From a bacterium (GTDB lineage Bacteria; Patescibacteriota; Minisyncoccia; Phycocordibacterales; UBA5272): a stretch of 64,000 bases of DNA. Each line of letters opens with the position of its first letter. Position 1 is the first letter of the stretch. A program made the position numbers and the translations under genes. Shown here one piece after another: positions 8,092 to 54,376 of this stretch. The stretch spans positions 94,590 to 158,589 of the forward strand of contig JAHFNB010000001.1 in NCBI GenBank assembly GCA_023267595.1, given 5' to 3'. A model generated the notes under the pieces. It was not told the DNA's origin and did not search any database. It saw only the letters and a program-made list of their open reading frames with translations.

Positions 8092-9792
8092 TTATTCACT
8101 ATAAAGATCAACTACACGGGAAACTTCATCAAAAGAAGTAATTCCCTCTAACACTTTGAGTATAGCATCCTCACGAAGAGAGGGGATTCCCTGATTTTGT
8201 GCCGCCGCACGTATTTCTCGTTCGCTCGGATTGGTAATTAATATCTTTTCAATATCTGCATTCATACTAATTGCTTCAAATATTCCAATACGATTATCAT
8301 ACCCTGTCATACTACAATGATCACACCCAACTGGTTTATAAAGTTTATATGAGGTATCTGGTAGGTGTCCTAACATAGAATCTTCTTTTCCTGATGTTTT
8401 CATAGCACCCAAAATATTGGTAATGGTACGTGATTCTTTTTCATTTGAAATATATTCTTCCTTGCATTGATTACATAGTGTTCGTACCAGTCGTTGTGCA
8501 AGTGCAAGTGATAATGCGCTTGCAATTACTTTTGGATTGACCCCAAGATCAATTAATCTGGGGATGGTTCCTGCTGCGTTATTAGTGTGAAGCGTAGAGA
8601 ATACCAAGTGGCCTGTGAGTGCGGCATTAATCGCAACTTTTGCTGTATCTTCATCACGTATTTCCCCAACCATAATAATATCTGGATCTTGGCGTAGTGC
8701 TGCCCGAAGTCCTGATAAAAATGTATAACCTTTTTCTTCTTCAACTTGTGTTTGTGTGATTCCTTCTAAATGATATTCAACAGGATCTTCGATGGTAATT
8801 ATTTTTACCTCTTTGTTATATACCTTATGTAAAAATGCGTAGAGTGTCGTTGTCTTTCCGCTACCTGTTGGACCAGTGGTTAGGATAACGCCATTTGGTT
8901 TACTAATTGCGTAGTCAATTAGTTCACGAAGTTTTGCAGGGAAAGCAATGTTATCAAGGTTAGATACTGAGTGACGTGGATCTAATAATCGCATTACAAA
9001 ACTCTCCCCATAATTTCCAGGAATTACAGAGACACGCACTTCCACCTCTACCGCACCTAAATCAATACTAAATCGTCCATCTTGTGCATTTGCACTCGTT
9101 GAGAGTTTTAATCCTGCGAGTAATTTCAATCGACTTGTAATATTTTTCAGTGCATTAAAATCAAAAAATGAAATATCATTCAACACACCATTTAAACGAT
9201 AACGCAGACGCACTGTTCCTTCTTCTGGTTCTATGTGAATATCACTTGCATCAAACTTGAGTGCACCTGCCATTATCATTTCAATAAGTCGTGTTGTTTT
9301 GTAGAGAACTTGAGAATTGATCAGTGCATCAAATTGTGTTTTCAATTCTTCGATAGAATTGAAACTCGCCATGAGTGTCTTCATCTTTTCTTCGGTTAAC
9401 TCGAGCATTCCACTTTCTACTTTATTTGATTGATTTAAATCTGCATATCGAGAAAGGACATGTTCTAATGATGCATGTGAACAAAGAAATAATAGTAATT
9501 CACTTCCACGTGTTTCAAGTGGACGAAGTAGTTCTTCTAGTTTTTGATTGTTAGGAGATAATGTTGCAATATACAGTTTTCTCCCTACAACTTTAAAAGG
9601 GACCAGTCCTGCTGCTCGCGCTTCTTCTTCTTTTATCATTTGCATTGCGTCTGGTTCAGGTGCAATACCACGCAAGTCAATATAAGGGAGTCCATATTTA
9701 TCAGAAAGAACTTTTACCAGTTCTTCTTCTTCATCTTTACGAAGGTCGGCAAGCGCATGATTTTGTACTGCCTCATCAAAGGTAATTGTCAT
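8092..9792 (-). CDS. pilB: Type IV pilus / type II secretion assembly ATPase (GspE/PilB family)
   Basis: N-terminal GspII_E_N-like domain. Walker A TGPTGSGKTTTLYAFL. Asp and His boxes. Tetracysteine CNQC...CDHC motif. Confidence 0.85.
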   Translation of the reverse strand: MTITFDEAVQNHALADLRKDEEEELVKVLSDKYGLPYIDLRGIAPEPDAMQMIKEEEARAAGLVPFKVVGRKLYIATLSPNNQKLEELLRPLETRGSELLLFLCSHASLEHVLSRYADLNQSNKVESGMLELTEEKMKTLMASFNSIEELKTQFDALINSQVLYKTTRLIEMIMAGALKFDASDIHIEPEEGTVRLRYRLNGVLNDISFFDFNALKNITSRLKLLAGLKLSTSANAQDGRFSIDLGAVEVEVRVSVIPGNYGESFVMRLLDPRHSVSNLDNIAFPAKLRELIDYAISKPNGVILTTGPTGSGKTTTLYAFLHKVYNKEVKIITIEDPVEYHLEGITQTQVEEEKGYTFLSGLRAALRQDPDIIMVGEIRDEDTAKVAINAALTGHLVFSTLHTNNAAGTIPRLIDLGVNPKVIASALSLALAQRLVRTLCNQCKEEYISNEKESRTITNILGAMKTSGKEDSMLGHLPDTSYKLYKPVGCDHCSMTGYDNRIGIFEAISMNADIEKILITNPSEREIRAAAQNQGIPSLREDAILKVLEGITSFDEVSRVVDLYSE

Positions 9793-9807
9793 GTAAACAA
9801 GTATATA

Positions 9808-9832
9808 GGGACTAGGGACTAGGGACTAGGGG
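9808..9832. repeat. Tandem heptamer (GGGACTA) x3.5 in the pilB upstream/divergent promoter region
   Basis: gggactagggactagggactagggg read directly. Confidence 0.8.
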
Positions 9833-9990
9833 ATACACGAGAAAGTATAGAGATAATCATATAAAATCCCTGTATTTACAAGGATTTTTTGCTTGACAAA
9901 TAATTAAAATCATGTATACTGTATTCATACTTTACAAGAGGGCTATCCTGCTCTCTACCAAAGACAGATCTTTCAAAAAAGGAGACCATC

Positions 9991-10821
9991 ATGGTCACGA
10001 AAATCGCGAAGTTTTTTACGACAACGTTGTTCACACTCCTCGGAGTGTGTGGAATGACTAGTGCGGGCGCGCAAGTGGTTCAGGGAGGCACTTGCGCCTA
10101 CCAGAACCCGGGTTACGGGCGTCCAGCAGTGTGGGTATGCCCTCAATCGGCATACAACAATCAACAAATTGTCGGTGTTGCTCCGCAAGGGGTTAGCATC
10201 GGCCAACCAGGTTTTGTGAATGGTCAACCGTGCACGTGGCGTGATCGGGCTGCAAGTGCAGGGGTGGGGGCAGTCATCGCAAACCTGGGAGCCTACGCAA
10301 TCAATCGTTTCTCAGGGCGCGGAGTAATTGACCGCACCGGTGCTGGCATTGTCGGAGGTATTGCAGGCGGAACTCTGTTCTGTGATCCCAATATCGTCAA
10401 TGATGGCCAAAGAATTGTTGTTGCTCCGCAAGGTGGTGCACCATACGGAAACGTTGGTGGTAGTATCACAAGTGGAGGAACCTCCATTGGTGGACCCATC
10501 ACTGTCCCCGGCAAATGCGACTTCGGTAATAACGTCGTTGCGTACACCTACGAAGGTCAGACTGGATGCGATAAACTCGCATCCACAATGACCAAAACGG
10601 TAAGCGGCGGAACGAGTTCGATGACGATGCCATCATCCTACACTGTGCAAGCGACAAAAGTGTTGTCTGAAGATGATCGCGACACATGCCGACTCCGTGT
10701 AAACGGAGTCTCGGTTGCAGAAATCAAACTTCCTCAATCTGTAAAGAAGGAAGAATCCAAAACGATTTGCGATGAGTGGCAAGTCCGCGAAGCCCGTTCA
10801 CGCGGACTCACTCGCCAGTAA
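9991..10821 (+). CDS. Secreted Cys-rich glycine-zipper protein (hypothetical), compositionally foreign
   Basis: GGAG RBS upstream. Signal peptide MVTKIAKFFTTTLFTLLGVCGMTSAGA. Glycine-zipper stretch AGVGAVIANLGAYAINRFSGRGVIDRTGAGIVGGIAGG. At least 8 Cys. Visibly GC-rich relative to flanks. Confidence 0.6.
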   Translation: MVTKIAKFFTTTLFTLLGVCGMTSAGAQVVQGGTCAYQNPGYGRPAVWVCPQSAYNNQQIVGVAPQGVSIGQPGFVNGQPCTWRDRAASAGVGAVIANLGAYAINRFSGRGVIDRTGAGIVGGIAGGTLFCDPNIVNDGQRIVVAPQGGAPYGNVGGSITSGGTSIGGPITVPGKCDFGNNVVAYTYEGQTGCDKLASTMTKTVSGGTSSMTMPSSYTVQATKVLSEDDRDTCRLRVNGVSVAEIKLPQSVKKEESKTICDEWQVREARSRGLTRQ

Positions 10822-10837
10822 AAAATCATCAACTTTT

Positions 10838-10864
10838 GACCCTCCTTGAGAGGGTCTTTTTTAT
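10838..10864. terminator. Rho-independent terminator
   Basis: gaccctc-ctt-gagggtc followed by tttttt. Confidence 0.6.
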
Positions 10865-10986
10865 TGTATAAATCATTGGGCGAACACATTGACTTTTCTA
10901 TATTTTTACTGTATAATAATAAATAGAGGTTGATTAGAAAATTGTTTCTAATCACTAACCAATTCACAAATCTGGACTGGAGGTAT

Positions 10987-11616
10987 ATGATGCTATCCCA
11001 ACGTCAAAAAGATTTTGCCATCATGATGCTTAAGTTGTTGGTTCTGTTGATTCTCATAGGTTTAGTTCTCACTTATTGGTCAGACAACAGTGATCTTAAT
11101 AAAAAAAATGAGATCCTGAAAGCAGATCTTCAAAAAGAAAAAAAGCAGAGCGCAGATCTCGTTGCAGAAAAAAAATATCTCGAGGAGAAGTTGAACAAAA
11201 AACTCGAGATGCCAGTCACACAGGCATGCACCATCAATGACGAAATGAAAAAACTTGTTGCAGATAGTTGTACTGCAAAAAAGCAGGCTCAAGCACCAGC
11301 CTCTGTTGCGCGGAAAAGAGCGGTTTCGATATCGAGGGTCGGGGAAGAAGAACGGATCAAACAAGCCCTTGATCTTGCGAGGTTGAGAGCAGAAGCACAT
11401 AGGGAAGTTGTGCTTGTGAATCCGACACCCTCACGGTCTACTGTAAAAGTTGTACAAGATCACTGTATTTTTCGGGTAGATGGGAGAATCGTCGCTGAAA
11501 AGTTTGTCCCTGAAGGGCAAGGAGCAAGTCAGTGCCCGATCTGGAGGGAAGCAGAAAGAGAAGAAAGAAAATTAAAACAAAAAGACCTGATTTGGGACAA
11601 GAAGTATCCGTCCTGA
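10987..11616 (+). CDS. Membrane-anchored coiled-coil protein (hypothetical)
   Basis: GGAGG RBS at 10979-10983, then ATG at 10987. N-terminal TM FAIMMLKLLVLLILIGLVLTYW. Lys/Glu-rich coiled coil. Cys-containing C-terminal domain. Moderately GC-rich. Confidence 0.55.
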   Translation: MMLSQRQKDFAIMMLKLLVLLILIGLVLTYWSDNSDLNKKNEILKADLQKEKKQSADLVAEKKYLEEKLNKKLEMPVTQACTINDEMKKLVADSCTAKKQAQAPASVARKRAVSISRVGEEERIKQALDLARLRAEAHREVVLVNPTPSRSTVKVVQDHCIFRVDGRIVAEKFVPEGQGASQCPIWREAEREERKLKQKDLIWDKKYPS

Positions 11617-11635
11617 AGAAGATTAAGTATATTTT

Positions 11636-11667
11636 GTGCCACCTCTAGAGGTGGCACTTAGTTTTTA
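11636..11667. terminator. Rho-independent terminator (10-bp perfect stem)
   Basis: gtgccacctc-ta-gaggtggcac followed by ttagttttt. Confidence 0.65.
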
Positions 11668-11751
11668 CCTTTAATGTTAAAACATTGACAAAACTTTATA
11701 AAACATATATAATGTTATTACGTTATTAAACGCACCCATATTTTACATTTT

Positions 11752-13656
11752 ATGAAAAAAATAATCTTAGCGACAAGTGTAGTATTTTCGCTAGTTTTCC
11801 AAGGGGGGTTCGTTTCTGCTCAATCTACGTTTGATTATAATTATGATTCAGGCACTACCTATGACTATAATTACGGTTCAAGTAATACATACGATTATAA
11901 CTACGGTTCAGGGAATACGTATGACTATAATTATGCCTCAGGCAATACGTATGATTATAACTATACTGCTCCACAAACAGGCACTACCTATGACTATAAT
12001 TACGGTGTAACTCTACAAACAGGTACAACATACGATTATAATTATTCTTCTGTGTTAGGTGGATCTGGTATAACATCTCCTTCGTACACATACACTCCTG
12101 GATATACATATACATCTCCAACAACATATGGTTCATCATACAGTTATCCAACAGTTGGAAATACTTCATACGGTGGAACTAGTTACGGAGGCATTAACTA
12201 TGGATATTCAAATTACGGATACTCTGCACCATCTGTAAGTTGGACAGGATATAACTATGGTTCTACATATGTAGCACCTCCAGTTACTACAACAATTCAA
12301 ACAATACAATGTTGGAATGGAACAGTGATTCCAAATACACAAACATGTCCTGCACAACCGACAACACCAACACAATGTTCGTATCTTTCTGATTCATATA
12401 CAACACGTTTCGATAATAATTATCCAACATGTACAAAACTTTGTTCTAATGGAACAACTATAGCAGGGAATCAACTTTGTCCTTCTACAGTAGTACAACC
12501 ACCAATCTATACTCCACCAACAATTAACTATCAAACATGTTGGGACGGATCTGTGATTCCTACAACATCAGTTTGTTCTTCACAGTACAAGGTGTGTGCT
12601 AATGGAACAAGTATTCCAATTTACCAAACATGTTATTACGGTAATACTTATGTTCCGTATGTGCCCCCACAAACAACAAAGTTCAACAGTGTTATAACAA
12701 GTATCGCAACACAAGTAACTATGAATAGTGGACGTTGTAACGGAATCGGACTCATCGCAAATAACGCGCAGTCAACAGGATGGTTTGAATACGGTGAAAC
12801 TGCATCTCTTGGTCGCACAACTGCGTCATCTGCAATCGGAAATTCATCATCTGCTCCATTTTCAAATCTTCTTTCAAATCTTAAAGCAAATACAAAATAT
12901 TACTGTCGCGCAGTTATGCAAAATCAGTACGGTATTGTAAAGGGTGATATTGTTTCTTTCACAACAAAGAGTAAGAGTGTTACGTATGTAAAACCAGTTA
13001 CAACAACGATAAAGACCGTTGTAAAACCAGTAGTAAAGAAAACAGAAATCATTTGTATTGATGGAAGTATTGTTTCAGTAGGAAGTCAATCATCTGCAAC
13101 ACTTATCAATAAAGGAGAGAAGTTGGTTGCTCTTCAAATGGTAAAGACAAATGGCTCACTCTCTGCAGGGAACTCAGTATCATATAACTTGTCATACAAG
13201 AATCTTTCAGACTCTCGTCTTACAGGTGTTGTTATTAAAGTAACTATTCCTCAAGAAATAACTAATGTGTCATCAAGTGTAGGAAATTATGACGAAGCAT
13301 CACACATGCTTACTCTTAATCAAGACACTATTGATGCATATACAGAAGGTGTAATTACATGGACTGGTAAAGTTGTAAAAGATGCACCAGTAGGAAAATC
13401 AATTGTTACAACTGCGTATGTTGTATATACCGTACCTGGAACATCAGTTCAAGATGAAGTAACTGCATATGTTGTTGGATCTATTATTCCTGCAACGACA
13501 ACTACTGTAGATACTGGAGCAAAGAATGTTATAGGAGCAAGCGAACGAGGATTCCTTCCAAACTCTCTCGTGGAATGGTTAGCCCTTATTGCAATCTTCT
13601 TTATTATCTATATCTTGGGTCGCAGTATTTATAGTTCCTATAAAGAGGAAAGATAA
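11752..13656 (+). CDS. Large repetitive cell-surface protein (Tyr/Ser/Thr-rich; DUF11-like beta-sandwich region; C-terminal membrane anchor)
   Basis: Signal peptide MKKIILATSVVFSLVFQGGFVSAQS. Eight or more copies of a T-YDYNY-GSGN decapeptide. Four C-x-N/D-G-T/S-x-I-P...C motifs. C-terminal LPNSL plus hydrophobic helix plus a basic tail. Confidence 0.75.
   Translation: MKKIILATSVVFSLVFQGGFVSAQSTFDYNYDSGTTYDYNYGSSNTYDYNYGSGNTYDYNYASGNTYDYNYTAPQTGTTYDYNYGVTLQTGTTYDYNYSSVLGGSGITSPSYTYTPGYTYTSPTTYGSSYSYPTVGNTSYGGTSYGGINYGYSNYGYSAPSVSWTGYNYGSTYVAPPVTTTIQTIQCWNGTVIPNTQTCPAQPTTPTQCSYLSDSYTTRFDNNYPTCTKLCSNGTTIAGNQLCPSTVVQPPIYTPPTINYQTCWDGSVIPTTSVCSSQYKVCANGTSIPIYQTCYYGNTYVPYVPPQTTKFNSVITSIATQVTMNSGRCNGIGLIANNAQSTGWFEYGETASLGRTTASSAIGNSSSAPFSNLLSNLKANTKYYCRAVMQNQYGIVKGDIVSFTTKSKSVTYVKPVTTTIKTVVKPVVKKTEIICIDGSIVSVGSQSSATLINKGEKLVALQMVKTNGSLSAGNSVSYNLSYKNLSDSRLTGVVIKVTIPQEITNVSSSVGNYDEASHMLTLNQDTIDAYTEGVITWTGKVVKDAPVGKSIVTTAYVVYTVPGTSVQDEVTAYVVGSIIPATTTTVDTGAKNVIGASERGFLPNSLVEWLALIAIFFIIYILGRSIYSSYKEER
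11830..12046 (+). repeat. Approx. 30-bp in-frame tandem repeats encoding TYDYNYGSGN units
   Basis: The motif acntatgantataantayggttcagg/naatac is repeated about 7-8 times. Confidence 0.8.
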
Positions 13657-13696
13657 GTAGCCTACACATGCCTTATGTGAGCAACGTGAAATAGAA

Positions 13697-13729
13697 GAAA
13701 GCCGTCCCGAAGGGACGGCTTTCTTCTAT
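13697..13729. terminator. Rho-independent terminator (12-bp stem)
   Basis: gaaagccgtccc-gaa-gggacggctttc followed by ttctat. Confidence 0.65.
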
Positions 13730-13743
13730 GGTATTATGGACGC

Positions 13744-14193
13744 ATGAGAGAGACCTGTTTAGTACACAAAGAGGATATAGAGGGGCTTGCTTTTAAAGTT
13801 TCTGAGATAGTAACAAAAGATAGTTCATCTCGTGCAAAGGTTATTCTCCTTGAAGGGGATTTGGGTGCTGGTAAAACTACCTTTACCAAAGCATTAGCCC
13901 ATGTTCTTGGTATTGAAAAAGATACCGTGCATAGTCCAACCTTTATTTTGAAAAAAGAATATAATGCAGAGCATATGATTTTCAAAAAACTTATTCATGT
14001 TGATGCATACCGTTTTACGCATCCAAGTGAAGCAAAGGTACTTCGTCTTGAAGAAGATTTAAAAAATCCAGACAATATAGTTGTTGTTGAATGGCCTTCA
14101 AAAATGAATTATATAAAGTCAGATATAGAATTAGAGTTTACAGTTGTAGACGATGATACTCGTGAGGTAACTATTTCATATGGTAAAGAGTAA
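13744..14193 (+). CDS. tsaE: tRNA threonylcarbamoyladenosine biosynthesis protein TsaE (YjeE)
   Basis: LLEGDLGAGKTTFTKALAHVLG P-loop. About 150 aa. Overlaps the start of polA. Confidence 0.8.
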   Translation: MRETCLVHKEDIEGLAFKVSEIVTKDSSSRAKVILLEGDLGAGKTTFTKALAHVLGIEKDTVHSPTFILKKEYNAEHMIFKKLIHVDAYRFTHPSEAKVLRLEEDLKNPDNIVVVEWPSKMNYIKSDIELEFTVVDDDTREVTISYGKE

Positions 14194-16522
14194 ATTAAAA
14201 ACAGTAGTATTGTTGGATGCTCACGCGATACTCCATCGTGGATATCATGCAATGGGTGGATTTGCGACCCATGACGGTAGACCAACAGGAGCGCTGTATG
14301 GTTTTGTGACTATGGTGCTTAAAATATATGAAGAAATAAAACCAGATTATATTGCAGCATGTTATGACTTACCAAAACCAACCTTTCGTCATACAAGTTA
14401 CGATGGTTATAAAGCAGGACGTGCAAAAACAGAAGATTCTCTCATTGAACAAATAAAAGAATCATATAAGTTATGTGAGGCACTTGCTATACCTGTATAT
14501 ACATGTGAAGGATTTGAGGCAGATGACTTACTTGGAACAATAGCAGAGCAGGTAAAGAAAGATAAAAAGTTTCGCGTTGTGATTGCAAGTGGGGATATGG
14601 ATACATTACAACTTGTCGATAAGGAATGTGTTACAGTATTTACCTTGAAAAAAGGAAATGAAGGAGTTTTTTATACAGAGAAAAGAGTAATTGAACGATT
14701 TGGTTTTGGTCCAGAACATATCCCTGATTACAAAGGTCTTGCAGGAGATAGTTCTGATAATATTATTGGTATTTCAGGGATTGGGGATAAGACTGCTACA
14801 GAACTTATCAAAAAATACGGCACCATAGAGAAGATGTATAAAGTGGTAAAGAAAAATCCACAAACACTCATTGACGATGGATTCAAGGAGCGCATGGTAA
14901 AACTTATAGAAGAAGGGGAAGAAGAAGCACTTTTTTCAAAGACACTTGCAACTATCAGGCGTGATGCTCCTGTGATCTATGAACATCCAAATAAAGAATG
15001 GCTAGAAAGTATTGAAGTTGAAAAATATCAAAAGATGTGCGATCTCTATGAGTTTCGTTCATTACGAAACAGGTTACACCTTATGCGTGGAGATGATGTG
15101 AAGAAAGAAGTGGAAACAGAAGAAGAAATAACAAAAGATGAATTGGAAGAATTGCGTGTGATGGTACATTTACTTCACAGTGAAATGACCAATGCTTCGT
15201 TAGTAGATATTCAAAATATTTCTGGTCATAAAAAAGTAAAGGACATACGCACTTTTTTAATAGAAGAATTAAAAAAGCATGATCTCTGGAAACTATTTGA
15301 AACGGTAGAGCAGCCACTTATGCCGCTTGTTAAAGAAATGGAGACAAACGGTATTGTTCTTGATGTGAAAAATCTTAAAAAGTTAAGTGATGAATTACAC
15401 ACTCGCGTGAAAGAACTTGAAAAGAAGATTTATAAATCCTCAGGTGTTGAGTTTAATATTGCATCCCCAAAACAATTAGGAGAAGTATTGTATGAAAAAT
15501 TAAATCTTGGTACAAAAATCAGAAAAACAAAGACAGGACAAAAAAGTACAAATGTAACAGAACTTGAGAAGATGAAAGGTGAGCATGAGATAATTGCATA
15601 TATTTTGGAATATCGTGAACTCACAAAATTGCTCTCGACATATATTGATTCATTACCTGTATATGTAAAAGATGACGGAAGAATACATGCTCACTTTATA
15701 CAAACAGGAGCAGGAACAGGGAGGTTTAGTTGCGAAGACCCAAATTTACAAAATCTTCCAATAAAAAGTGAATTAGGGCAAAAAGTAAGGAAGGCATTTA
15801 TTGCAGATAAAGGAAAAGTACTTTTATCGTGTGACTATGCACAAATCGACTTGCGCGCAGCAGCCATTTTATCAGGGGATGAAAACTTGGTAGAGATTTT
15901 CAAAAAAGGAATTGATGTACACACAGGAACTGCAGCACGAGTGTTTGGTGTGAAGGAAGAAAAAGTAACTCCCGAAATGCGTCGCAAAGCAAAGGCTATC
16001 AATTTTGGTATCTTGTACGGCATGGGAGTGACCTCTCTTAAAGAGGGAATGGGGGTTGAACGAAAGGAGGCTCAAGAGTTTTATGATCAATATAAAATGA
16101 CATTTACTCGTCTTATGGAATATCTTGAAGAGGTAAAAGCATTTGCATGGAAACATGGGTATACAGAAACATTACTCGGTCGTAGACGAGAAGTTCCTCT
16201 TTTGAAAAGCCCTCTCCCTTTTTTACGTGCACAAGGGGAACGTATTGCGATCAATGCTCCTATTCAAGGGACGTCTGCAGATATTTTGAAACTTGCAATG
16301 ATAGATGCTCACGAATATATAGTAAAAAATAAGTTAGAAGATAAAGTTAAATTGTTGATGCAAATTCACGATGAACTTGTATTTGAAATGGATGAAACTA
16401 TATCTGAAGATGTTGCAGATGGATTGGTGGAAGTTCTTGAACATGTATTATCAAAAAGAAAATTAGCAACTCTTCCACTCGTTGCGTCTCGGTCACTTGG
16501 TAAGAATTTACAAGCACTATGA
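14180..16522 (+). CDS. polA: DNA polymerase I
   Basis: N-terminal 5'-3' exonuclease domain (LLDAHAILHRGYHAM). Polymerase motif A DYAQIDLRAAAILSGD. Motif B RRKAKAINFGILYGMG. Motif C QIHDELVFE. Confidence 0.9.
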   Translation: MVKSKLKTVVLLDAHAILHRGYHAMGGFATHDGRPTGALYGFVTMVLKIYEEIKPDYIAACYDLPKPTFRHTSYDGYKAGRAKTEDSLIEQIKESYKLCEALAIPVYTCEGFEADDLLGTIAEQVKKDKKFRVVIASGDMDTLQLVDKECVTVFTLKKGNEGVFYTEKRVIERFGFGPEHIPDYKGLAGDSSDNIIGISGIGDKTATELIKKYGTIEKMYKVVKKNPQTLIDDGFKERMVKLIEEGEEEALFSKTLATIRRDAPVIYEHPNKEWLESIEVEKYQKMCDLYEFRSLRNRLHLMRGDDVKKEVETEEEITKDELEELRVMVHLLHSEMTNASLVDIQNISGHKKVKDIRTFLIEELKKHDLWKLFETVEQPLMPLVKEMETNGIVLDVKNLKKLSDELHTRVKELEKKIYKSSGVEFNIASPKQLGEVLYEKLNLGTKIRKTKTGQKSTNVTELEKMKGEHEIIAYILEYRELTKLLSTYIDSLPVYVKDDGRIHAHFIQTGAGTGRFSCEDPNLQNLPIKSELGQKVRKAFIADKGKVLLSCDYAQIDLRAAAILSGDENLVEIFKKGIDVHTGTAARVFGVKEEKVTPEMRRKAKAINFGILYGMGVTSLKEGMGVERKEAQEFYDQYKMTFTRLMEYLEEVKAFAWKHGYTETLLGRRREVPLLKSPLPFLRAQGERIAINAPIQGTSADILKLAMIDAHEYIVKNKLEDKVKLLMQIHDELVFEMDETISEDVADGLVEVLEHVLSKRKLATLPLVASRSLGKNLQAL

Positions 16523-17148
16523 TATATACCATAGTAGGAACAGATATAGATAAAAGAGAAGTTGCCCTTGCTGCTTGTGCAAAAATGGGAGAGGTGACAA
16601 ATCATATTTATAGTGAACACATTGCATTACTCGAACCACTTATCTCTGCAACAAGTTTATTTGGTGATAAGGTAATAGCACATATCATTCAGGTGATGGA
16701 TGTAGCCTCATCTCGTGATGAACTTATACGATTACTTGGAGAGATGAAGGAGTCAAAGAATATTTTTATTATTGATGAACCATTTGCAGATGTAAATCGT
16801 GTGAAGCGATTAGAAAAGTATTCAGAAAAAGTTTTTGATGCTCGTCTTGAAAAAGAAAAAGGAGTTGATGTATTTATGCTATGTACTTTATTTGCTCGTC
16901 GTGACAAAAAAGGGGTATGGGTAGAATGGATGCATGTGAGAGACAAAGAATCACCTGAAGCAATTCATGGCGCATTATGGTGGAAGTTTTCGACTATGTG
17001 GCAAGACGTGAGAGCAGGTAAACCGAGTAAGTTTACATTACAAGAATGTGAATCAATTGGACGACAATTAGTCACTTCAAGCATAGAAGCACATCGTGGA
17101 AATAAAGATTTGAAAGTGGAACTAGAAGCAATATTGCTTAGTATTTAG
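16519..17148 (+). CDS. Hypothetical protein, possibly short DNA polymerase III delta (HolA)-like
   Basis: Follows polA with a 4-nt overlap. The N-terminal region LLEPLISATSLFGDKVIAHI resembles HolA. Weak. Confidence 0.4.
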   Translation: MIYTIVGTDIDKREVALAACAKMGEVTNHIYSEHIALLEPLISATSLFGDKVIAHIIQVMDVASSRDELIRLLGEMKESKNIFIIDEPFADVNRVKRLEKYSEKVFDARLEKEKGVDVFMLCTLFARRDKKGVWVEWMHVRDKESPEAIHGALWWKFSTMWQDVRAGKPSKFTLQECESIGRQLVTSSIEAHRGNKDLKVELEAILLSI

Positions 17149-52507: not shown

Positions 52508-54376
52508 ATGGAGATACCAAACAATGAAGAAAGCGCATTAGATAGTATTGAGCACGAATTATATGATCCAAAGAAGAAAATGGATGATGTAATGATGCAT
52601 CGTGTTCGTGATGCAAGAAGTGTTGATTTACCAACATCATGGGGAGAGATAAATCCTATTATTACAGAAGCGCATGATTCAAAAACACTTTCGTTTGGTG
52701 CAAAAATACTTATCGGATCATGCATACTACTTCTCCTTTCTCTTTCATTTACAGCATGGCGTGTGCTTTCATCTCGTAATGTTGTTTCTGCGGCCAATAT
52801 CGACATGTCGACAGAAATTGTCCCATATATTGAAGGTGGTCAAGATACACCTTTTACGGTGACATTACAAAATAGAAATGGATCTGCCCTCCAAGAAGCA
52901 TCGCTTACTTTATTGTATAAACAAGGTAATGGTACTCAAGATGAACAAGAGAAAATTACCGAGAAACGAGACTTAGGAACAATTGGTGTTAATGAATATA
53001 AGAAACAAGATTTTAAAGTTATTGTATATGGTGGTGAATCAGAAGCACGAGATCTTACGGTAAAACTAGAATACAAAGTTGCAGGATCAAATGCAGTTTT
53101 TAATAAAATTGTTACAACATCTGTTGTACTTAAAACACCACCACTTTCTGTTCATATCGAAGGTCCATCACTACTGTCTATTGGTCAAACAGGAGAGTTT
53201 ATTATTTCTGTAAAAAATAATGCGGCTACATCATCATTACCGAGTGCTCTTCAAGTTATTTTACCTACTAATTTTACCGTTGAGAGTACAGATCCAAAAC
53301 CAAGTTCTCGTGGCCAAGTTTGGAATGTTCCATCACTTGATCAAGGCGAAACAAAAACGTTTACCATCACAGGTGCAATTACTGGGTCTCAAGGTGAGAC
53401 GAGCACCATAAAAGCCCTTGTTGGTTCTCAGGGTGGGCTAATTGCAAGCATTGGTGTTGTATATTCATCTCAGACATATGATATACAATTACGTTCTTCA
53501 CCACTTATGCTCTCATTAGGACTTGAAACGGATAGAGGAAACGTCGAGACATTACGTTATGGTGATAAAACACTTGTAACCGTAACGTATGCAAATAGTA
53601 GTGACCAACCGATTCGTGATGTCTCTCTTGTATTAAAGATACAAGGTGATGCGCCGTTACTTAAACAAGTAGATCCTGATGCAGGATATTATGATTCGCG
53701 TGCTCAGAGTATTACGTGGAATAAATCAATAATATCTAATTTGGCAAATCTTACACCACACGCACAAGGATCATTCCGAGTTGTTATTCCTGTGGTGAGT
53801 AAGGGAATAAATTCTCCTGCTATTAATCTGTCACTTTCTGGTAATGGAACTGTACAGGATAAAAATGATGTGACAACAATGCTTTCAAAATCATGGATAG
53901 TACAAGGTACTGCAACATTAAGTGGACAAACGACATATAAAAACTCTCCTTTCCAAAATACTGGACCTGTACCACCACAACCAAATGTAGATACTACGTA
54001 CACAACACACATTGTTGTATCTGCGCAGAACGCACTTGTAAATAGCCGCGTATCATTTATTTTACCTGCGTATGTGACATGGAAAAATGTAACATCAAAT
54101 ACTACATCTATTAGTTATGATGCAGGGACTCGTACTGTAACATGGGATATTGGTTCTATAGGAGCAGGGAAAACAGTAATGGCAGATATTAATCTTTCAG
54201 TTCGTCCATCACAAAGTCATGTCGGGCAATCACCATCTATTACTTCGGGAATAGTACTCGATGCAGATGAAGAAGTAGCAAGAACTCATATTCGCACCAC
54301 TATCTCTCCACTTACAACGATCCTTGTAGGAGAAAATTGGCCAGTTGATCCATCACGTGTTGTAGATAGTCAATAA
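52508..54376 (+). CDS. Large membrane-anchored surface protein with repeated beta-sandwich (DUF11/CARDB-like) modules
   Basis: TM at about aa 55-80. Long Ser/Thr/Asn/Val-rich extracellular region with repeated 'TVT...N.S...L' modules. Confidence 0.6.
   Translation: MEIPNNEESALDSIEHELYDPKKKMDDVMMHRVRDARSVDLPTSWGEINPIITEAHDSKTLSFGAKILIGSCILLLLSLSFTAWRVLSSRNVVSAANIDMSTEIVPYIEGGQDTPFTVTLQNRNGSALQEASLTLLYKQGNGTQDEQEKITEKRDLGTIGVNEYKKQDFKVIVYGGESEARDLTVKLEYKVAGSNAVFNKIVTTSVVLKTPPLSVHIEGPSLLSIGQTGEFIISVKNNAATSSLPSALQVILPTNFTVESTDPKPSSRGQVWNVPSLDQGETKTFTITGAITGSQGETSTIKALVGSQGGLIASIGVVYSSQTYDIQLRSSPLMLSLGLETDRGNVETLRYGDKTLVTVTYANSSDQPIRDVSLVLKIQGDAPLLKQVDPDAGYYDSRAQSITWNKSIISNLANLTPHAQGSFRVVIPVVSKGINSPAINLSLSGNGTVQDKNDVTTMLSKSWIVQGTATLSGQTTYKNSPFQNTGPVPPQPNVDTTYTTHIVVSAQNALVNSRVSFILPAYVTWKNVTSNTTSISYDAGTRTVTWDIGSIGAGKTVMADINLSVRPSQSHVGQSPSITSGIVLDADEEVARTHIRTTISPLTTILVGENWPVDPSRVVDSQ

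Follow-up and report, generated by a model that had tools for sequence, protein, structure and literature searches.

The 634-residue protein described here, encoded in a 64,000-nucleotide stretch of DNA (the window), is probably a type I membrane-anchored, fibrillar-adhesin-like appendage of one Paceibacteria (Parcubacteria/'Nomurabacteria') lineage, judging from its sequence and modeled folds. What anchors it seems to be an unusually conserved C-terminal helix sitting in the cell's own membrane, and not a sortase-type wall signal. By homology, it belongs to an uncharacterized, single-copy Paceibacteria family. The original prediction, which saw in it a modular surface protein that is secreted and anchored at its C-terminus, and a candidate adhesin, fits the architecture found (Table 1), in which an N-terminal signal peptide, a repeat tip, cysteine-bracketed modules, two beta-sandwich domains and a C-terminal anchor follow one another.

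Gene Structure and Genomic Neighborhood

The predicted open reading frame was confirmed in position, strand, start codon and length. The gene together with 3 kb on each side is base-for-base identical between the ENA assembly and the Logan assembly of a different run, and since independent assemblies agree, we could rule out that the repeats in the gene are an assembly artifact. A promoter scan found the 12/12 site to be unique within positions 9700-14300, and the gene preceding that of the surface protein has a terminator of its own (11636-11657). On the 3' side, the 89-nt stretch 13657-13745 containing the hairpin folds with an MFE of -41 kcal/mol (z -6.8), a stability reached by 0 of 200 shuffled sequences. 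A simple terminator scan missed this hairpin, probably because its T-run lies within the stem. The dedicated terminator that had been predicted is thus present, and a perfect consensus promoter can be added to it. We propose that the gene is transcribed as a unit of its own, from its own promoter to its own terminator, and the quality of the promoter suggests that transcription is probably strong.

Table 1. Features of the surface-protein gene and its product, in coordinates of the window.
Feature	Coordinates	Strand	Description
Sigma-70-type promoter, TTGACA-17-TATAAT	11685..11713	+	12/12 consensus matches; ~39 nt 5' of the ATG
Coding sequence, 634-aa surface protein with stop codon	11752..13656	+	ATG start; identical protein in NCBI, ENA and Logan assemblies
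Predicted Sec-type signal peptide, aa 1-23	11752..11820	+	hydropathy and sequence; putative cleavage site
Seven [F/Y]DYNY units, hypervariable tip, aa 26-98	11827..12045	+	imperfect 30-bp-period DNA repeat
Tyr/Ser/Gly/Thr-rich low-complexity tract, aa 99-180	12046..12291	+	S 20%, Y 20%, G 17%, T 17%; predicted disordered
Five Cys-bracketed hairpin modules	12310..12633	+	C187-C199, C209-C227, C231-C243, C263-C275, C282-C294
FN3-like beta-sandwich, aa ~308-408	12673..12975	+	7 strands; C329/C385; WFEYGET...YYCRAVMQN motif
CLIPPER (DUF11)-like CnaA-type Ig domain, aa ~433-578	13048..13485	+	lone invariant C435 at start; without canonical isopeptide triad
C-terminal anchor, aa 600-634	13549..13653	+	G-FLPNSL-VEW, TM helix LALIAIFFIIYILG, predicted cytoplasmic tail RSIYSSYKEER
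18-bp perfect hairpin, intrinsic-terminator-like, U-rich 3' arm	13691..13729	+	just past the stop codon, before tsaE

One family copy was found per genome, with the sole exception of contig CAZNZQ010000005.1, where the two copies stem from a palindromic assembly artifact. The gene sits in a conserved neighborhood. A divergent PilB-like ATPase is encoded upstream in 44 of the 45 loci with enough sequence, always separated from the surface-protein gene by genes for 2-3 small exported or membrane proteins, and downstream are found TsaE (67 of 71 loci), PolA (68 of 71) and a 209-aa gene (61 of 71). The small secreted upstream proteins are fast-evolving and highly variable across loci, and ruvABC, tsaE and polA all fall within the same conserved block. 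The window further encodes peptidoglycan genes (PBP1 and a Mur ligase). An episymbiotic lifestyle is plausible for this Paceibacteria genome.

Signal Peptide, Repeat Tip and Cysteine Modules

The N-terminal segment has the makeup of the signal peptide that had been claimed, with MKK followed by a hydrophobic stretch over residues 3-23 and with VSA and QS flanking the putative cleavage site, and the ortholog consensus retains MK...AQ at the N-terminus. Five of the [F/Y]DYNY units that come next have a 10-aa period and two a 13-14-aa spacing. At least eight T-YDYNY-GSGN units, encoded by repeats of about 30 bp at 11830-12046, had been proposed; the tandem units exist, but their number is seven, and the 30-bp period extends over 11826-11964, beyond which the spacings are 39 and 42 nt onward to 12044. 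The proposal that the array is a hotspot for slippage and length variation holds insofar as the number of repeats varies between close strains: aside from two indels, one of 39 aa in the repeat array and one of 9 aa, P0008 and P0010 are ~99% identical. The DNA copies, however, are 63-82% identical to each other, and so make a modest substrate for slippage.

Across orthologs the N-terminal part ranges from 181 to 665 aa in length, the repeat peptide differs in nearly every one, and the variable part contains 0-52 cysteines, mostly in even numbers. The AF2 model shows region 1-200 as disordered, with pLDDT <50 for the repeat tip. The low-complexity tract, correctly described before as rich in Tyr, Ser and Gly, is Thr-rich as well. 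Residues 1-300 matched no Pfam or NCBIfam domain and show no recognizable adhesive (ligand-binding) domain.

The four Cys-bracketed peptides of the original prediction correspond exactly to the pairs C187-C199, C231-C243, C263-C275 and C282-C294. A fifth pair, C209-C227, had been overlooked, as had C329/C385 and the lone invariant C435 in the domains that follow. The last two modules form a conserved QTCWDGSxIP...CANGTSxP...C unit, in which C263, W264, G266, C275, C282, N284, G285 and C294 are at least 90% conserved in the ortholog consensus, and AF2 models residues 217-238 and 260-289 as beta-hairpins, with a block-mean pLDDT of 82-86 across aa 261-290. The EB/CC-domain Pfam labels carried by some homologs were set aside as faint compositional matches to nematode Cys-rich modules that do not indicate homology. 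The cysteines of each pair would be expected to form disulfides, and an MdbA-like oxidoreductase and VKOR, catalysts of extracytoplasmic disulfide formation, are enriched in CPR genomes (PMC6744442).

Two Beta-Sandwich Domains

A DUF11-like region had been expected to follow the Cys pairs directly; such a domain is present, but an FN3-like domain, unseen before, lies between it and the Cys modules. The FN3-like domain is the most conserved globular domain of the family (77% mean pairwise identity), with 7 AF2 strands at 314-404 and block-mean pLDDT mostly ~80-95. Foldseek searches with the surface protein returned tandem FnIII/Ig matches that include V. cholerae RbmA (E 1e-7). The sole Pfam match of the FN3-like region was a weak one, under the cutoff, to the FN3-like family Pur_ac_phosph_N (E 0.0075). 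One source labels a homolog 'fibronectin type protein'. Conservation of this domain goes beyond what would be expected of a passive stalk, and it may itself be a functional (binding) part.

For the CLIPPER-like domain, the match to the CLIPPER/DUF11 family of Pfam (PF01345) reaches 23.9 bits (E 5e-5), 0.7 bit short of the gathering score of 24.6, and orthologs L066 and L070 exceed the cutoff with 37.4 and 30.6 bits. TIGR01451 scores 25 bits against a cutoff of 24, and a precomputed PF01345 match is present on many homologs. The fold is a CnaA-like Ig beta-sandwich as in PDB 9IFR, and the folds closest to it are those of pilin and adhesin stalk domains (BcpA, RrgB, CppA/B). At the positions inferred for the isopeptide Lys/Asp/Asn, assigned by sequence register relative to a conserved Pro, the family alignment has K/R, V/I and T/S, suggesting that the domain lacks the Lys-Asn isopeptide bond and the catalytic Asp. 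A phmmer search of PDB sequences with the C-terminal half returned nothing at E<=10, and one with the family profile nothing at E<=1. A second CLIPPER-containing protein in the window (52508-54376) was considered as a paralog and rejected, having no BLASTP similarity and the opposite topology.

The C-Terminal Anchor

The C-terminus reads GFLPNSL-VEWLALIAIFFIIYILG-RSIYSSYKEER, in agreement with the motif and hydrophobic helix first described, with a Kyte-Doolittle peak at 600-630, an AF2 helix at 606-631, and R624 and K631 after the hydrophobic stretch. With a mean identity of 84%, this tail is the most conserved region of the protein, ahead of the FN3-like domain, the CLIPPER-like domain (54%) and the linkers (43-48%). 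The motif F-[LM]-P-x-[STN]-L is present in 119 of 120 close homologs, and these carriers show no variation at F, P, L, E, W, A, L, A, I, I, L and S and conserve the RS.Y.SY of the predicted cytoplasmic side. The TM helix and the predicted cytoplasmic tail match the motif in conservation and exceed every globular domain. Orthologs of 33-37% identity carry the variant (I/L)FPQTLLGW, and the two deepest orthologs, L070 and L074, keep the helix and ILGK/R and have neither the Pro nor the Trp.

Between loci, 11-15 of the 31 tail codons differ synonymously versus 3-9 non-synonymously. Because synonymous sites vary freely, a constraint at the DNA or RNA level (e.g. a tsaE promoter) was rejected as the cause of tail conservation, and the tail, on this codon evidence, is under purifying selection at the protein level.

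The tail is specific to the family. An exhaustive tail-only search of 1.84e9 cluster representatives yielded 35 matches, of which the 23 that are long enough to judge all have the family core, the others being tail-only fragments. With a local HMM of 63 tails, no other ORF carrying the tail was found in ~1.26 Mb of related DNA (the ORFs of the window and of 71 loci), where the best non-family match (E 0.03) was noise, the N-terminal TM of an upstream neighbor in L010. The idea that divergent 'FPQTLLGWL' tails might be common on other Parcubacteria proteins found no support, since a word-indexed profile search gave no significant protein. On the best reading of these data, the anchor TM helix would have a sequence-specific role.

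Proposed Model and Alternative Explanations

In the model that we favor, the consensus promoter would drive the gene as its own unit, and the product would be exported by the Sec pathway via its N-terminal signal peptide until the C-terminal helix stops in the cytoplasmic membrane, to remain there as part of the mature protein. Beside the membrane, two rigid beta-sandwiches, first the CLIPPER-like domain (no isopeptide bond) and then the FN3-like domain, would presumably cross the wall, and the stalk would be lengthened by disulfide-stapled beta-hairpins whose number varies by lineage. The disordered, aromatic-rich repeat tip would face outward and touch a host cell, a particle or a polymer, turning over fast via repeat gain, loss and replacement. 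At the other end, the helix and its flanks would contact a conserved membrane partner, or further copies of the same protein, in a sequence-specific manner, and we propose that this contact accounts for the near-invariance of the anchor.

A bolder reading, which we put forward tentatively and regard as rather unlikely, is that the near-invariant GF[LM]Px[ST]L[IV]EW helix and RSxYxSY tail constitute a new Paceibacteria module dedicated to this family, either recognized by a single-substrate processing or attachment enzyme or acting as a docking helix to a membrane machine; in the latter case the machine could, for example, be one associated with the always-adjacent PilB-like ATPase. If true, this would amount to a new way for sortase-poor CPR cells to mount their main surface appendage.

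It is unlikely that the protein is an abundant S-layer glycoprotein that tiles the cell, membrane-anchored at its C-terminus like the TM- or lipid-anchored ones of archaea. Such a role would suit a core gene that is present once per genome and is flanked by a perfect promoter and a terminator of its own, Ig-like domains with a C-terminal TM, and a composition very rich in Thr, Ser and Tyr with 11 N-x-S/T sequons, and cryo-EM studies have reported S-layer-like layers on CPR cells. However, a lattice is not easily squared with a protein in which one half is low-complexity, disordered sequence whose length ranges widely (181-665 aa); no SLH or other S-layer domain was found with Pfam or NCBIfam; and the folds that match best belong to pilin and adhesin stalks.

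Quite improbable, in our view, is that the tail is a sorting signal cleaved at or close to F[LM]Px[ST]L by a sortase-, exosortase- or rhomboid-like enzyme, leaving the ectodomain covalently attached to peptidoglycan or lipid, with one enzyme dedicated to this one substrate. Its layout has three parts, a Pro motif followed by a ~20-residue hydrophobic helix and then Arg/Lys, so that the hydrophobic segment and positively charged C-terminal end of LPXTG substrates are both present. Loss of the motif among homologs had been named as grounds for giving up a sortase signal; it is conserved in nearly all close homologs, with its variant at greater distance, and conservation as such therefore does not refute a sortase reading. 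Single-target sortase systems exist in other bacteria, and a dedicated processing enzyme could be encoded elsewhere in the genome, our searches having covered the 64 kb of the window and ~20 kb per ortholog. More than half of CPR genomes have sortases, but their occurrence is reported to be patchy outside Microgenomates (PMC6744442).

Against cleavage, an invariant Leu (119 of 119 motif carriers) takes the place of the LPXTG Gly, Asn is accepted at position 4, and L070 and L074 lack the Pro. The region past the motif, which in LPXTG substrates is dispensable in sequence and conserves just hydrophobicity and charge, is here the most conserved of all, with nearly every helix position invariant, and a helix and predicted cytoplasmic tail under stronger constraint than the ectodomain would be unexpected for a discarded peptide. 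The LPXTG models TIGR01167 and PF00746 matched neither the whole protein nor isolated tails at E<=10, and neither tail type matched PEP-CTERM, PGF-CTERM, GlyGly-CTERM, IPTL-CTERM or other curated sorting models of Pfam and NCBIfam. Restriction of the tail to a single family is a further point against such a signal. For these reasons, neither the LPXTG-type nor the archaeal/CPR-type sorting signal of the original prediction could be upheld.

Nor did the regions searched yield a candidate enzyme. No SrtA homolog or TLxTC protein was found in the 64-kb window, where phmmer --max with an approximate S. aureus SrtA query sequence gave a best E of 0.71 among the ORFs, i.e. noise; the approximate query likewise found no sortase homolog in 71 orthologous neighborhoods of ~20 kb each; and Pfam tables over 1752-64000 of the window list no PF04203, exosortase, archaeosortase or rhomboid. 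Dedicated sortase systems normally adjoin their target gene.

Lastly, we consider it very unlikely that the FN3-like, Ig-like and TM half is the membrane base or anchor of a larger filament or machine, as proposed for the RbmA-like PamR of CPR Pam pili, with a possible functional link to the PilB-like ATPase or to the small, fast-evolving secreted proteins encoded upstream. In its favor, the RbmA match combined with a C-terminal TM is the architecture described for PamR, the ATPase gene and the 2-3 intervening small exported or membrane proteins are constant neighbors, and the near-invariance of the TM and predicted cytoplasmic tail suggests that they dock to a conserved partner. On the other hand, RbmA-type matches are generic for tandem beta-sandwiches, the neighboring genes have no recognizable domains and the Pfam tables show no Pam pilin or chaperone homologs in the neighborhood, most reports of Pam homologs concern Saccharimonadia and Microgenomatia, the variability of the upstream proteins is too great for them to partner an invariant helix, and conserved synteny in tiny genomes, in a block that also holds ruvABC, tsaE and polA, need not imply a common function.

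Significance and Comparison with Known Systems

Paceibacteria rank among the most abundant CPR groups without cultured members, and the way in which they attach to partners is poorly understood. Single-copy, syntenic, clade-wide and probably strongly transcribed, with a fast-evolving, predicted outer half and a near-frozen anchor, the membrane-anchored appendage proposed here is a concrete candidate for a host- or particle-contact structure. Its repeat arrays may serve as a strain-typing marker, the protein itself could be an antigen or handle with which to label and enrich these cells, and the tail and FN3-like domain offer well-defined targets for partner-finding. The family may also provide a test case for how CPR bacteria tether surface structures without classical sortase signals.

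CLIPPER domains have been described as stalk domains of fibrillar adhesins, some of the domains being without an isopeptide bond (bioRxiv 10.1101/2025.04.25.650565). The surface protein resembles CLIPPER fibrillar adhesins (PF01345; PDB 9IFR) in its C-terminal anchoring and in having its variable part distal to the anchor. It differs in possessing one CLIPPER-like domain instead of a tandem array, in the absence of the Lys/Asp/Asn triad, in the absence of a recognizable adhesive domain, and in the short disulfide hairpins that would extend its stalk. Whereas CLIPPER fibrillar adhesins are anchored by LPXTG, OmpA-like or type 1/type 5 modules, the surface protein would be anchored by a family-specific TM helix.

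Like the LPXTG substrates of Gram-positive bacteria, it is a secreted protein whose C-terminal end combines a Pro motif with a hydrophobic helix and a basic residue, and its Ig-like stalk domains resemble those of the sortase-assembled pilins BcpA, RrgB and CppA/B. Unlike in LPXTG substrates, its motif is F[LM]Px[STN]L, where Gly is replaced by an invariant Leu, its helix and tail are invariant in sequence, it has no model match and no sortase homolog nearby, and its signal is not common to other proteins.

Archaeal S-layer glycoproteins of the PGF-CTERM/ArtA type are C-terminally anchored by a TM or by lipid. The surface protein is like them abundant-looking, single-copy, Thr/Ser-rich and Ig-like, with a hydrophobic anchor after a short conserved motif. 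It is set apart by having no match to PGF-CTERM or another such model, by a window that contains no archaeosortase, by belonging to a bacterium with peptidoglycan genes, and by its large disordered tip.

For other CPR surface structures, C-terminal TM helices on the Ig/FnIII-like proteins PamR, PamC and PamD have been proposed as the tether, in place of sortase (bioRxiv 10.64898/2026.03.03.709456). Unlike the surface protein, PamR possesses a donor strand at its N-terminus and is encoded in a pam operon together with pilins and chaperones; conversely, the surface protein has an extension of ~300 aa composed of repeats and Cys hairpins, lacks recognizable pam genes nearby and comes from a different CPR class. 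Nevertheless, compared by PamR's description, both are CPR proteins that combine a signal peptide and a C-terminal TM with two FnIII/Ig-like domains in tandem, Foldseek ranks RbmA high among the matches of the surface protein as well, and for both a sortase-free tether to the cytoplasmic membrane is proposed.

Gene, family and conserved neighborhood

The predicted reading frame was confirmed as an ATG-initiated gene encoding a 634-aa surface protein, preceded by a perfect promoter and followed by a strong hairpin (see table); the gene upstream has a terminator of its own. More than 160 homologues were detected, every one of them in a MAG of Paceibacteria, Parcubacteria or 'Nomurabacteria' and unnamed or labelled hypothetical; the family is uncharacterised and clade-specific. 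Conservation spans ~aa 258 (QTCWDGSxIP...CANGTSxP...C) through the C-terminus, and the N-terminal remainder is variable. A scan of GTDB species genomes gave 67 loci. The gene is single-copy; the sole seeming duplicate (L036/L053) lies on a 53-kb contig, CAZNZQ010000005.1, that is a perfect palindrome about its midpoint, so that the gene is seen twice, mirrored, through an assembly artefact of a public MAG.

The gene belongs to a fixed block (dnaN ... PBP1, tyrS, ruvC, ruvB, a divergent PilB-like ATPase, two to three small exported proteins, the surface protein, tsaE, polA and a 209-aa gene). The ATPase lies upstream in 44/45 loci with enough sequence, divergently adjoining the surface-protein block in 44/45 genomes; TsaE, PolA and the 209-aa gene are found downstream in 67/71, 68/71 and 61/71 loci. 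The ATPase is solitary, adjoining ruvB and ruvC and not inside a pilus operon. The 209-aa gene, conserved directly after polA, encodes a cytoplasmic product with no Pfam or NCBIfam match.

Between the ATPase and surface-protein genes sit two genes, each with its own promoter and terminator, whose 276-aa and 208-aa products have in common a C-terminal Cys motif of ~40 aa (C.[LF]RV.G..VAE...P...C..W). Of 71 loci, only 4 and 2, respectively, have a recognisable homologue, indicating that these genes evolve extremely fast; in orthologous loci L004 and L005 the genes at the same position are unrelated in sequence, yet they too have a C-terminal Cys motif in common. Elsewhere in the window, a 622-aa protein, likewise of surface type, carries, after an N-terminal TM anchor, several CLIPPER/CARDB-like beta-sandwich repeats (weak Pfam CLIPPER matches); it has no sequence relation to the 634-aa protein and the opposite topology.

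Features of the surface protein and its surroundings (nt, window positions; aa, surface-protein residues; models from AlphaFold2)
Feature	Position	Strand	Remarks
PilB/GspE-type ATPase	nt 8092-9792	-	MshEN N-terminal domain; T2SSE 387 bits
276-aa protein	nt 9991-10821	+	Gly-rich; signal peptide
208-aa protein	nt 10990-11616	+	N-terminal TM, coiled coil
Promoter	nt 11685-11713		TTGACA-17-TATAAT, perfect; 5' of surface-protein gene
Surface-protein gene	nt 11752-13656	+	634 aa
Tandem repeat	nt 11826-11964		30-bp period, 4.6 copies, 77% matches (Tandem Repeats Finder)
Cys435 codon	nt 13054-13056
Hairpin	nt 13691-13729		18 bp, perfect; 3' of stop codon; folded 89-nt stretch z -6.8
209-aa gene	nt 16519-17148	+
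622-aa protein	nt 52508-54376	+	TM anchor at its aa ~66-85
Disordered region	aa 1-200		pLDDT <50
Short beta-hairpins spanning Cys pairs	aa 217-238, 260-289
FN3-like seven-strand sandwich	aa 314-404		block-mean pLDDT mostly ~80-95
CLIPPER-like second sandwich	aa 432-577		pLDDT 94-98 for most of length
C-terminal helix	aa 606-631

A variable N-terminal half and a conserved core

On inspection, the N-terminus (MKKIILATSVVFSLVFQGGFVSA/QS) resembles a Sec signal peptide. The tandem array that follows is present as predicted, with one unit fewer than the "at least 8" proposed: seven [F/Y]DYNY motifs start at aa 27, 37, 47, 57, 67, 80 and 94. At the DNA level a repeat finder traces the array to 12044, with spacings of 39 and 42 nt and copies that are 63-82% identical and thus well diverged at synonymous sites. 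An assembly artefact, the objection attached to the original prediction, was ruled out as the source of the array because the gene and 3 kb on either side match base for base in an ENA assembly and a Logan assembly from a different run. Residues 99-180 are 20% Ser, 20% Tyr, 17% Gly and 17% Thr.

Among homologues, the variable part ranges from 181 to 665 aa, and its aromatic-rich repeat peptide differs in nearly each orthologue (TYDYNY, DTGSWN, NDGYIG, YTSPSY, SEPYITGG and others). Repeat gain and loss among close strains is seen directly in two homologues, P0008 and P0010, which are ~99% identical apart from two indels, one of 39 aa within the YDYNY array and one of 9 aa within a YTQP repeat. 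The variable part of orthologues holds 0-52 Cys, mostly in even counts, as repeated CPxGxxLxNGxC-type hairpins; no curated family matched these modules. The surface protein itself has 13 Cys, among them the four predicted Cys-bracketed peptides exactly as placed (C187-199, C231-243, C263-275 and C282-294). The others, overlooked originally, are a fifth pair (C209-C227), C329/C385 as another pair, and C435 on its own.

AlphaFold2, run with a 120-sequence family alignment, predicted two sandwiches, the first previously unnoticed. The second coincides with the sole Pfam match, DUF11/PF01345 (aa 462-558, E 5e-5, 23.9 bits versus a gathering score of 24.6); an NCBIfam search of the surface protein gave nothing meaningful. 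We accept this domain as CLIPPER-like since divergent orthologues exceed the cut-offs for PF01345 (37.4 and 30.6 bits) and TIGR01451 (25 bits versus 24). PF01345 was lately renamed CLIPPER, a CnaA-like Ig domain from which fibrillar-adhesin stalks are built and of which many but not all members contain a Lys-Asn isopeptide bond (bioRxiv 10.1101/2025.04.25.650565). In the family alignment the inferred isopeptide Lys/Asp/Asn positions are occupied by K/R, V/I and T/S, and the canonical bond is probably absent. The FN3-like domain has many invariant residues, and this high conservation suggests binding to something constant, e.g. a partner protein or the wall of the cell itself.

The lone Cys435, in a C-x-D-G-S motif opening the CLIPPER-like domain, is invariant save for its absence from the most divergent orthologue (L074). 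Exactly seven Cys occur in the conserved core of 53/60 orthologues, comprising three presumed disulfide pairs and Cys435, which could be a free thiol or form an intermolecular disulfide.

The C-terminal tail

The one hydrophobic C-terminal peak (600-630) falls in the tail (aa 600-634), for which 119/120 homologues share the pattern G-F-[LM]-P-x-[S/T/N]-L-[IV]-E-W-L-A-L-x-A-I-x-F-I-I-F-I-L-G-R-S-x-Y-x-S-Y-K, with F, P, L, E, W and most helix positions invariant. Mean pairwise identity is 84% in the tail, 77% in the FN3-like domain, 62% in the conserved Cys double hairpin, 54% in the CLIPPER-like domain and 43-48% in the linkers. Among five loci, synonymous differences affect 11-15 of the 31 tail codons and non-synonymous ones only 3-9, indicating constraint on the peptide and not the DNA. 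At 33-37% identity, orthologues have a variant tail, (I/L)FPQTLLGWLVLFAIILI..., and in the two most divergent (L070 and L074) the helix and ILGK/R are kept and the Pro and Trp lost. A short His cluster (..HH or ..IHHH) on the cytoplasmic side ends most orthologues of either tail type; it is missing from the window's protein, which has KEER as its terminus.

Exhaustive phmmer searching of 1.84 billion cluster representatives with the last 48 residues returned 35 proteins at E<=0.001; the 23 long enough to judge all have the FN3 and CLIPPER core, and the other 12 are short fragments containing the tail only. Searched against every ORF in the window and loci (~1.26 Mb), an HMM built from 63 tails turned up no further carrier.

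We consider that the tail most likely stays on the protein as a type I membrane anchor and that its helix and short cytoplasmic segment act in a sequence-specific way (partner contact or self-association), because a discarded peptide would not be expected to be the best-conserved part of its protein, nor is it likely to be confined to one family without an adjacent enzyme. There is a low probability that a dedicated, unrecognised processing enzyme encoded elsewhere in the genome cuts the tail. PamR, which is RbmA-like and combines tandem FnIII domains with a C-terminal TM helix, has recently been proposed to tether the Pam pili of CPR, whose chaperones are likewise TM-anchored (bioRxiv 10.64898/2026.03.03.709456); the proposal is a precedent for holding Ig-like surface structures of CPR by TM helices without sortase. 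It also prompted the rival idea that the surface protein might be a filament base, but pam-like genes are not recognisable beside its gene. The LPXTG-like or CPR/archaeal sorting signal originally proposed is not supported: Leu, not Gly, follows the Ser/Thr; neither tail type matched curated C-terminal sorting models in Pfam/NCBIfam, even at E<=10; the window holds no sortase homologue or TLxTC protein, its Pfam tables (1752-64000) no sortase, exosortase or rhomboid family, and all 71 orthologous neighborhoods no SrtA homologue. Sortase is common across CPR and patchy outside Microgenomates (PMC6744442).

Proposed mechanism and comparison with fibrillar adhesins

We infer most of the mechanism. 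The surface protein would be exported by Sec, with the C-terminal helix acting as a stop-transfer segment, and its hairpins would fold oxidatively; an MdbA-like oxidoreductase and VKOR are enriched in CPR genomes (PMC6744442), and neither occurs in the window. The CLIPPER-like and FN3-like sandwiches, with Lys/Thr/Val/Pro-rich linkers, may form a wall-crossing base, the hairpins may lengthen the stalk, and the disordered Tyr/Asn/Gly/Ser/Thr-rich repeat tip would present an exposed, fast-evolving contact surface.

The original description was largely right, and its reading as a surface protein or adhesin is reasonable. The logic is that of a fibrillar adhesin, from which the surface protein differs in having no recognisable adhesive domain and a TM helix as anchor. 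Its parts are of known kinds (signal peptide, Ig/FN3 stalk, variable repeats and TM anchor), and what is unusual is the C-terminal module, frozen and private to the family.
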